From the NCBI RefSeq assembly GCF_056712565.1, contig NZ_CM160072.1: 64,000 nucleotides of DNA; one strand, 5' to 3'. This document shows positions 43,801-46,800 of the stretch, piece by piece. A program made the position numbers. The number at the start of each line of letters is the position of its first letter. Within the stretch, counting starts at the first letter, position 1.

Positions 43801-46800
43801 TGTTCGATAGCCTGATTGAGTTTATCGAAGATAGCCTGATTACTCGCATCAATCTGATTCTGAAAGATGAGAAGGACACCACAGCGCGCCTGCGTCTGAT
43901 TGTGTTGCTGCTTCTCGGTTTTGGTGAGCGTAATCCTGGCCTGACCCGCATCCTCACTGGTCATGCACTAATGTTTGAACAGGATCGCCTGCAAGGGCGC
44001 ATCAACCAGCTATTCGAGCGTATTGAAGCGCAGTTGCGTCAGGTATTGCGTGAAAAGAGAATGCGTGAGGGCGAAGGCTACGCGACGGATGAAACCCTGC
44101 TGGCAAGCCAGATCCTGGCCTTCTGTGAAGGTATGCTGTCACGCTTTGTCCGCAGCGAGTTTAAATACCGCCCGACGGATGACTTTGACGCCCGCTGGCC
44201 GCTAATTGCTGCACAGTTGCAGTAATATGACGCCGGATGACTTTTCATCCGGCGAGTTTCTTTAAACGCCGAACTCTTCGCGATAGGCCTTAACCGCCGC
44301 CAGATGTTCCGCCATTTCTGGCTTCTCTTCCAGATAGGCAATCAGATCTTTCAAGGTGATGATAGAGATCACTTTGCAGTTGTAATCACGCTCAACTTCC
44401 TGAATTGCCGAAATCTCGCCGCGCCCCCGTTCCTGACGATCGAGCGAAATCAATACGCCAGCAAGCGTCGCGCCATTGGCCTGAATAATTTCCATCGACT
44501 CGCGAATCGCCGTTCCGGCGGTGATCACATCATCCACCAGCATTATGCGTCCTTGTAACGCGCTACCGACCAGATTGCCGCCTTCACCGTGGTCTTTTGC
44601 TTCTTTGCGGTTAAAGCAGTACGGCAGGTCCAGGTCATGATGCTCCGCCAGCGCCACGGCAGTTGTGGTGGCAATCGGGATCCCTTTGTAAGCAGGGCCA
44701 AACAGCAGATCGAACTCAATGCCGGAATCCACCAATGCTTCAGCGTAAAAACGGCCTAACAGTGCCAGATCGCGCCCGGTATTAAACAGCCCGGCGTTGA
44801 AGAAATAGGGGCTTTTGCGCCCGGATTTCAGCGTGAACTCGCCAAACTTTAACACCTGCTTGCTAAGCGCAAATTCAATAAACTGGCGCTGATATGGTTT
44901 CATGCCTTCGCTCCTCATCTTACTTTTCTACAGACAAAAAAAAGGCGACTCATCAGTCGCCTTAAAAATCAGTTTGCCAGCGCCGCCTTCTGCGTCGCTA
45001 CAATGGATTCGATTCCCCCTCGGGCCAGCGCCAACAAGGTGAGTAACTCTTCGTGGGTGAACGGTTCGCCTTCTGCCGTCCCCTGCACTTCAATGATACG
45101 CCCGTCTTCGGTCATCACTACGTTCATGTCGGTCTCTGCGGCAGAGTCTTCAACATATTCCAGATCGCAAACCGCTTCGCCGTTCACAATCCCGACAGAG
45201 ACCGCGGCTACCATCCCTTTCATTGGATTAGTTTTCAGCTTGCCGTTTTCCACCAGCTTCTGTAGCGCATCTGCCAGCGCCACGCAGGCACCCGTAATCG
45301 AAGCGGTACGCGTGCCACCATCAGCCTGAAGCACGTCGCAGTCCAGCGTAATGGTGAACTCACCCAGTGCTTTCAAATCTACTGCCGCGCGAAGAGCACG
45401 GGCGATCAGACGCTGGATTTCCATTGTGCGTCCACCCTGCTTACCTTTCGCCGCTTCACGCGCGTTACGGGTATGGGTAGAACGCGGCAGCATACCGTAC
45501 TCTGCGGTGATCCAGCCCTGGCCCTGACCTTTCAGGAAGCGCGGCACGCCTTCTTCAATAGAGGCGGTACACAACACTTTGGTATCGCCAAATTCGACCA
45601 GCACCGAGCCTTCTGCATGTTTTGTATAGTTACGAGTCAGGGTAACGGGACGCACCTGATTATTGCTACGGCCTGCTGGACGCATATTGAAATCTCCGGC
45701 TTGAAACAAATGTGGCTGCGCATTATACGGACTTCCGGCGGTTATTCCTATCCTGACAAGGCATCGATGGCTATAATCCTTCCACCTCTCCTTTTATAAA
45801 CAGGAACGTCTATGATCCGCAGTATGACCGCCTACGCCCGGCGTGAAATCAAGGGTGAATGGGGGAGCGCAACCTGGGAAATGCGCTCGGTAAACCAGCG
45901 TTATCTGGAAACTTACTTTCGTCTGCCGGAGCAGTTCCGTAGCCTTGAACCTGTCGTTCGCGAGCGTATTCGTTCTCGCCTGACGCGCGGTAAAGTGGAA
46001 TGTACCCTGCGCTATGAGCCAGATGTTAGCGCGCAAGGTGAGCTGATCCTCAACGAAAAACTGGCTAAACAGCTGGTAACTGCCGCGAACTGGGTAAAAA
46101 TGCAGAGCGACGAAGGAGAAATCAACCCGGTTGATATTCTACGCTGGCCGGGCGTGATGGCAGCCCAGGAGCAAGATCTCGACGCGATTGCAGCTGAAAT
46201 TCTCGCGGCGTTGGATGGCACCCTGGATGACTTTATCATCGCGCGCGAAACCGAAGGTCAGGCGCTGAAAGTGTTGATTGAGCAGCGTCTGGAAGGCGTC
46301 ACCGCCGAAGTGGTCAAAGTCCGCGCCCATATGCCGGAAATCCTGCAATGGCAGCGTGAGCGTCTGGTAGCGAAGCTGGAAGATGCTCAGGTGCAACTGG
46401 AAAACAACCGTCTGGAGCAGGAGTTGGTTCTGCTGGCACAACGAATTGACGTTGCCGAAGAACTGGACCGCCTCGAAGCGCATGTCAAAGAGACCTACAA
46501 CATTCTGAAGAAAAAAGAAGCGGTTGGCCGTCGTCTGGACTTTATGATGCAGGAGTTCAACCGCGAGTCGAACACTCTTGCTTCGAAATCTATCAATGCC
46601 GAAGTGACGAATTCTGCCATCGAGCTGAAAGTGTTGATTGAGCAGATGCGCGAGCAGATCCAGAATATCGAATAAGCTATCAGCAAAAATCACCAAGCAG
46701 CAAAAAACCATAAAGCCCGCGAAATGTCGGGCTTTTTTGTTATCATGAGCTATCATAACGACGCAACAAAGCGCACAATATGCGTGTACATAGAGGTGTA

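Follow-up and report, generated by a model that had tools for sequence, protein, structure and literature searches.

The 64,000-nt stretch of DNA analysed here (hereafter the window) carries, on its minus strand, an intact rph gene followed by pyrE, and it is almost certain that this locus is the wild-type Escherichia coli rph-pyrE operon with the pyrE attenuator, at which read-through would be set by the coupling between ribosome and polymerase and would be sensitive to UTP. The integrity of the gene, the site at which it differs from MG1655, the anatomy of the intercistronic element and its conservation in other species were all observed directly in the genomes compared. An intact rph-pyrE pair with its attenuator is a textbook locus, already known, and is no discovery.

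An intact rph gene followed by the pyrE attenuator

The rph gene runs from an ATG at 45685 to a TGA at 44971..44969 on the minus strand, comprising 238 codons and no internal stop. Its product matches the NCBIfam equivalog TIGR01966 at 380.8 bits (cutoff 141.5), with residues 2-236 aligned to profile positions 1-235 of 236, and both Pfam domains of the RNase PH fold are present (PF01138, 107.1 bits; PF03725, 58.3 bits), as are matches to the solved RNase PH structures 1r6l (350 bits) and 1oyp (282 bits). The uninterrupted frame and the end-to-end TIGR01966 match thus bear out what an earlier note on this DNA had claimed, namely that rph is full length with 238 aa. Across the 1651-nt region the window and the type strain ATCC 11775 agree at every base (100%), and in the 100%-identical genomes the RefSeq rph (WP_001247093.1) has coordinates identical to those found here; the duck isolate ExPEC XM differs from the window at 6 positions over 38 kb. 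Judged by these matches, rph is predicted to encode full-length RNase PH, a 3′ exoribonuclease that acts by phosphorolysis in trimming the 3′ ends of tRNA. The features of the operon, in the direction of transcription, are as follows.

45722..45727, minus strand: candidate −10 element of the operon promoter, a perfect TATAAT 37 nt 5′ of the rph ATG
44969..45685, minus strand: rph (ribonuclease PH), intact, 238 aa plus TGA, from the ORF, its translation, TIGR01966, PF01138/PF03725 and 1r6l
45015..45019, minus strand: G5 run, where K-12 rph-1 has its one-base deletion, wild type here (GGGGG, against GGGG in MG1655)
44964..44968, minus strand: T5 (U-rich) spacer from the rph stop to the hairpin, from the sequence
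44942..44963, minus strand: pyrE attenuator hairpin, 9-bp stem AAGGCGACT/AGTCGCCTT with loop GATG, from the terminator scan, the inverted repeat and the fold
44936..44943, minus strand: T8 run, the U tract of the intrinsic terminator, from the sequence, its first two T overlapping the stem
44904..44935, minus strand: 32-nt segment from the T run to pyrE, with the Shine-Dalgarno sequence GAGGAG at 44916..44911, from the sequence
44262..44903, minus strand: pyrE, orotate phosphoribosyltransferase, 213 aa, from TIGR00336 and the RefSeq annotation of the identical sequence

The intergenic stretch separating rph from pyrE is 65 nt long and reads, on the coding strand 3′ of rph, TGA-TTTTT-AAGGCGACT-GATG-AGTCGCCTT-TTTTTT-G. 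The stem begins 5 nt past the rph TGA, has five G-C pairs among its nine and closes a 4-nt loop, and the first two T of the T8 run are able to pair with the AA at the stem foot. In a 61-nt context the fold z-score of the hairpin is −2.3, modestly better than shuffles. The GC-rich hairpin with its U run between the two genes is identical to the K-12 element, and the rph stop codon lies within a ribosome footprint of it. The earlier note had placed a hairpin and a T7 tract before pyrE, of which the hairpin and its position hold, and the run is T8 (44943..44936) rather than T7; the interval which it gave ends at 44925, 11 nt past the T run, and takes in rph and the attenuator, leaving out both the ribosome-binding site and the start of pyrE.

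The product of pyrE matches TIGR00336 at 239.9 bits (cutoff 106.8), and its ATG lies at 44903. A mechanically called pyrE ORF opens at an in-frame ATG at 44918, five codons 5′ of the annotated start; since this ATG overlaps the GAGGAG and other genera do not conserve it as a start, the real start is at 44903. The 32-nt segment that precedes it appears too short for an independent promoter, and a simple consensus scan, which may miss weak promoters inside rph, found no promoter-like site between the T run and pyrE. Therefore, with little room and no consensus promoter between terminator and gene, pyrE mRNA probably arises by read-through. As for the start of the operon, the candidate −10 hexamer is the same in MG1655 over the aligned part, and a two-hexamer promoter scan did not report TATAAT at 45722..45727.

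Comparison with MG1655 and the frequency of rph-1

The corresponding MG1655 region (NC_000913 3814000-3819500) was aligned to that of the window. Across rph, the alignment contains 23 substitutions, of which two change the amino acid (A/V and T/I), and exactly one indel, which is G5 in the window versus G4 in MG1655; the window frame is intact and the deletion is on the MG1655 side. The window thus does not carry the rph-1 allele, having G5 and a 238-aa product. The MG1655 frame translates to 228 aa ending in ...LALARGESNPL*, and its product is labelled 'truncated RNase PH' in RefSeq. The premature TAG of MG1655 corresponds to window positions 45000..44998, 29 nt short of the natural stop and 34 nt from the hairpin. 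All 65 intergenic bases (65/65) are identical between the two, including the hairpin and the T8 run, and the genes, their order and their strand are the same, as are the neighbours, with slmA, dut and coaBC on one side and yicC on the other. What distinguishes them is that the window has the ancestral G5, an rph of 238 aa and 5 nt between stop and hairpin, whereas MG1655 and W3110 have G4, 228 aa and 34 nt.

The K-12 allele was searched as a 68-nt query carrying the rph-1 sequence in 5420 complete E. coli genomes, and it occurs exactly in 167 of them; in all other genomes among the matches listed the match spans 69 nt, and the extra G is therefore present. Intact rph is the rule, in ~97% of complete E. 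coli genomes. The wild-type arrangement, unlike the rph-1 form of MG1655, had been proposed in the earlier note and is confirmed by that single indel; its further remark that the locus is useful only as a strain marker holds in a weakened form, because with the intact form in ~97% of complete genomes the marker is weak and excludes only the K-12 lineage of the MG1655/W3110 type.

The idea that G4 at the rph-1 site is common outside K-12 was rejected, with 1/5420 genomes having it on the window allele and 167 on the K-12 allele. The one exact match to the window allele with G4 is the non-K-12 E. coli strain 2015C-3101 (NZ_CP027221.1). A G5-to-G4 change as in rph-1 is also present in Kluyvera genomosp. 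3 YDC799 (CP022114.1, L071 4119), with the tail ...ARGESNPL*, and the rph of this genome has a second frameshift near codon 17. The G4 in these two genomes represents either independent homopolymer slippage or an error of long-read assembly. That the rph G5 would be a recurrent slippage hotspot, serving as a reversible population switch which lowers pyrE by uncoupling translation from the attenuator, is a highly improbable extension. Separately, in strain WP9-S17-ESBL-11 (NZ_AP022287.1) an IS200C-family transposase interrupts the slmA-pyrE-rph-yicC region, which is found in two pieces over 2362 nt versus 1651.

Conservation of the attenuator across Enterobacterales

Species-representative genomes were scanned with a degenerate pattern of the PyrE N-terminus, yielding at least 120 Enterobacterales loci, in which the rph stop was located and the downstream sequence parsed. 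A hairpin with a T run lies directly 3′ of the rph stop in 119/120 Enterobacterales species among the matches listed, and the 119 parsed sequences comprise 117 conforming loci, the window and the frameshifted locus L071. The spacer from stop to stem is 2-7 nt in the conforming loci and mostly T, and in 97 of the 119 parsed sequences it measures 4 or 5 nt. Among the matches listed, the parsed stems are 7-12 bp and the loops 3-6 nt; the T run is 6-9 in 116/119 parsed entries and T8 in 79/119. The intergenic length ranges from 57 to ~203 nt in the loci among the matches listed, with the variation entirely 3′ of the T run. Therefore, with the spacer held at 2-7 nt while the intergenic length varies so widely, the distance from stop to hairpin is constrained, that is, under selection, and the remainder is not. 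The rph C-terminus of the window matches the orthologues in 118 other species.

Covariation was assessed by aligning 85 distinct sequences, in which 96.9% of the stem cells are paired and four of the nine pairs show compensatory changes (33 double-change cells), such as A-U to G-C, G-C to A-U, and U-A to C-G or G-C. None of 500 shuffles reached the observed pairing and covariation, and sliding the partner columns reduced the pairing to 26-68%. The stem core GGCGAC/GTCGCC is nearly invariant, and the covariation rests on the four outer pairs. Found at the same place in 119/120 species, 96.9% paired and with compensatory changes at 4/9 pairs, the hairpin is therefore not a chance match.

Two loci considered as lacking an attenuator were rejected as such, since in L026 the stop is directly followed by a normal hairpin and T7, within an intergenic region that is longer (~203 nt), and L071 has a normal hairpin after its frameshifted rph. 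The sole exception among the 120 listed is Budvicia diplopodorum (L024 2786..2954), which has an enlarged hairpin (GGCGAC...17 nt...GTCGCC) and no T run, and pyrE control may differ in this species. Intergenic regions of 110-203 nt were seen in Buttiauxella, Raoultella/Klebsiella and an Escherichia-like species (e.g. L070, L076, L042, L113 and L026), and their extra sequence, which is partly palindromic and may be a REP-like element or a second regulatory layer, is inserted after the T run and before the ribosome-binding site of pyrE.

Discussion

By the model described for K-12, the hairpin and U run would act as an intrinsic terminator, at which read-through would depend on how closely the ribosome at the end of rph trails the polymerase. 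A ribosome with a stop codon in its A site shields ~12 nt downstream. When UTP is scarce, the polymerase would stall in the U-rich stretch and the ribosome would reach the rph stop, 5 nt from the stem, where the T5 spacer and roughly half the 5′ arm would lie beneath it; with its footprint on this arm the hairpin could not form, and transcription would consequently proceed into pyrE. When UTP is ample, the polymerase would outrun the ribosome, the hairpin would form, and most transcripts would end 5′ of pyrE. The UTP sensitivity and the occlusion by the ribosome are carried over from the literature or inferential. UTP-modulated pyrE attenuation was reportedly described by Bonekamp et al. in 1984 and by Jensen in 1993, and the K-12 rph-pyrE operon with its intercistronic attenuator is said to have been described by these authors in the same years and by Poulsen et al. 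in 1984.

Since the rph frame stays open as far as the natural stop codon, the coupling would be intact in the window strain. In MG1655, termination would be high and pyrE under-expressed, because rph-1 stops the ribosomes 29 nt earlier, 34 nt from the stem. It has been reported that rph-1 lowers PyrE, as passing the intercistronic attenuator needs close coupling of transcription and translation (PMC11148124), and that a recurrent 82-bp deletion in evolved MG1655 brings a stop codon to the attenuator loop (PMC2784333), with a growth rate increase of 55% (PMC6941894). In the window, the 3′ end of rph contains two direct copies, 83 nt apart, of the 10-nt sequence GCAGAAGGCG (coding strand), at 44984..44993 and 45067..45076. 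This pair probably corresponds to the repeats reported to mediate that deletion, and the spacing in MG1655 would be 82, not 83, because of rph-1.

The rph-pyrE attenuator shares its principle with the pyrBI leader attenuator of E. coli. In the latter, UTP-dependent pausing of the polymerase lets the ribosome block a terminator hairpin. However, pyrBI uses a dedicated short leader peptide, whereas rph-pyrE uses the ribosome that finishes rph, a full-size enzyme gene. The pyr operons of Bacillus are alike in having a terminator upstream of pyrimidine biosynthesis genes, but their PyrR attenuation uses a protein-bound anti-antiterminator RNA, and no such element was detected in the window.

The element is shaped like a standard intrinsic terminator, and it might accordingly be a constitutive terminator of a monocistronic rph, with pyrE transcribed from a promoter of its own. 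We regard this as very unlikely, since the T run ends only 32 nt before the ATG, in a stretch that is mostly ribosome-binding site and in which no promoter-like site was found, and since a plain terminator would not need a spacing from stop to stem that stays at 2-7 nt in 119 species, against a freely varying downstream spacer; in addition, the K-12 literature on the identical region describes attenuation (PMC11148124, PMC2784333). Read-through controlled by the ribosome is also to be set against control by an RNA-binding protein acting in trans or by a riboswitch, similar to PyrR, whose logic is the one used in the pyrimidine operons of Firmicutes. Such control is extremely unlikely here, as the Rfam scan placed no family, the PyrR-binding element included, at threshold in the rph-pyrE region, and no conserved sequence is present for an alternative antiterminator, the sequence 5′ of the stem being coding sequence and then 2-7 nt. 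Moreover, the position of the stop codon alone explains the rph-1 phenotype (PMC11148124, PMC2784333).

The remaining doubt concerns the open frame of rph itself, which could be an artefact of assembly, or the gene could be inactive for another reason. Homopolymer runs are prone to indel errors, and one Kluyvera genome has two frameshifts in rph; but the G5 sequence is present in ~5250/5420 complete E. coli genomes, the 1651-nt region is shared without a difference with ATCC 11775, and the C-terminus of rph agrees with that of the orthologues in the 118 other species, so that we give this reading practically no weight.

On the basis of its sequence, the strain would be expected to have normal RNase PH and pyrimidine-responsive pyrE expression, unlike strains derived from MG1655 or W3110, which matters only in comparisons of growth or of pyrimidine physiology with K-12. 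The survey provides a small confirmation of the coupling model, in that the distance from stop to hairpin is constrained across Enterobacterales, as the model predicts.

Other elements in the window

An integrative island of ~20.1 kb lies in the 3′ end of the neighbouring gene yicC, occupying 46655..64000 and continuing past the window end, with the full element at L003 20856..41001. An imperfect direct repeat of 21 bp, 19/21 identical, borders it on both sides, and both copies encode ...IQNIE*. In ATCC 11775 the site is unoccupied and dinD follows yicC directly, and the yicC-integrase junction is common to 108/5424 complete E. coli genomes. The features of the island are as follows.

46655..46675: island attL, CAGATCCAGAATATCGAATAA, at the 3′ end of yicC
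outside the window: island attR, CAGATCCAGAACATTGAATAA
46864..48132: tyrosine integrase
53110..55236: DUF927 primase
57470..60001, 60001..62061 and L003 36262..39018 (the last running off the window): three consecutive large ORFs of 843, 686 and 918 aa at the far end, with very strong PHROG matches

The other island genes are HTH, Rha, AntA/B, BRO-N, Icd-like, SSB and ProQ/FinO genes and a frameshifted PerC, and by its gene content the island looks like a satellite of the P4 type. The PHROG matches of the three large ORFs are phrog_992 'head protein' (2e-298, with transglycosylase-like secondary matches), phrog_1145 and phrog_684 'virion structural protein' (5e-295); Pfam and PADLOC searches of these three ORFs returned no match. 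They resemble podovirus internal-virion or ejection proteins, and the island is otherwise without capsid, tail or packaging genes. Elsewhere in the window, Rfam identified naRNA4 at 598..675 on the plus strand (81.1 bits) and, at 37312..37350 on the minus strand, a JUMPstart element located upstream of the waa/rfaQ core-LPS operon (55.2 bits).
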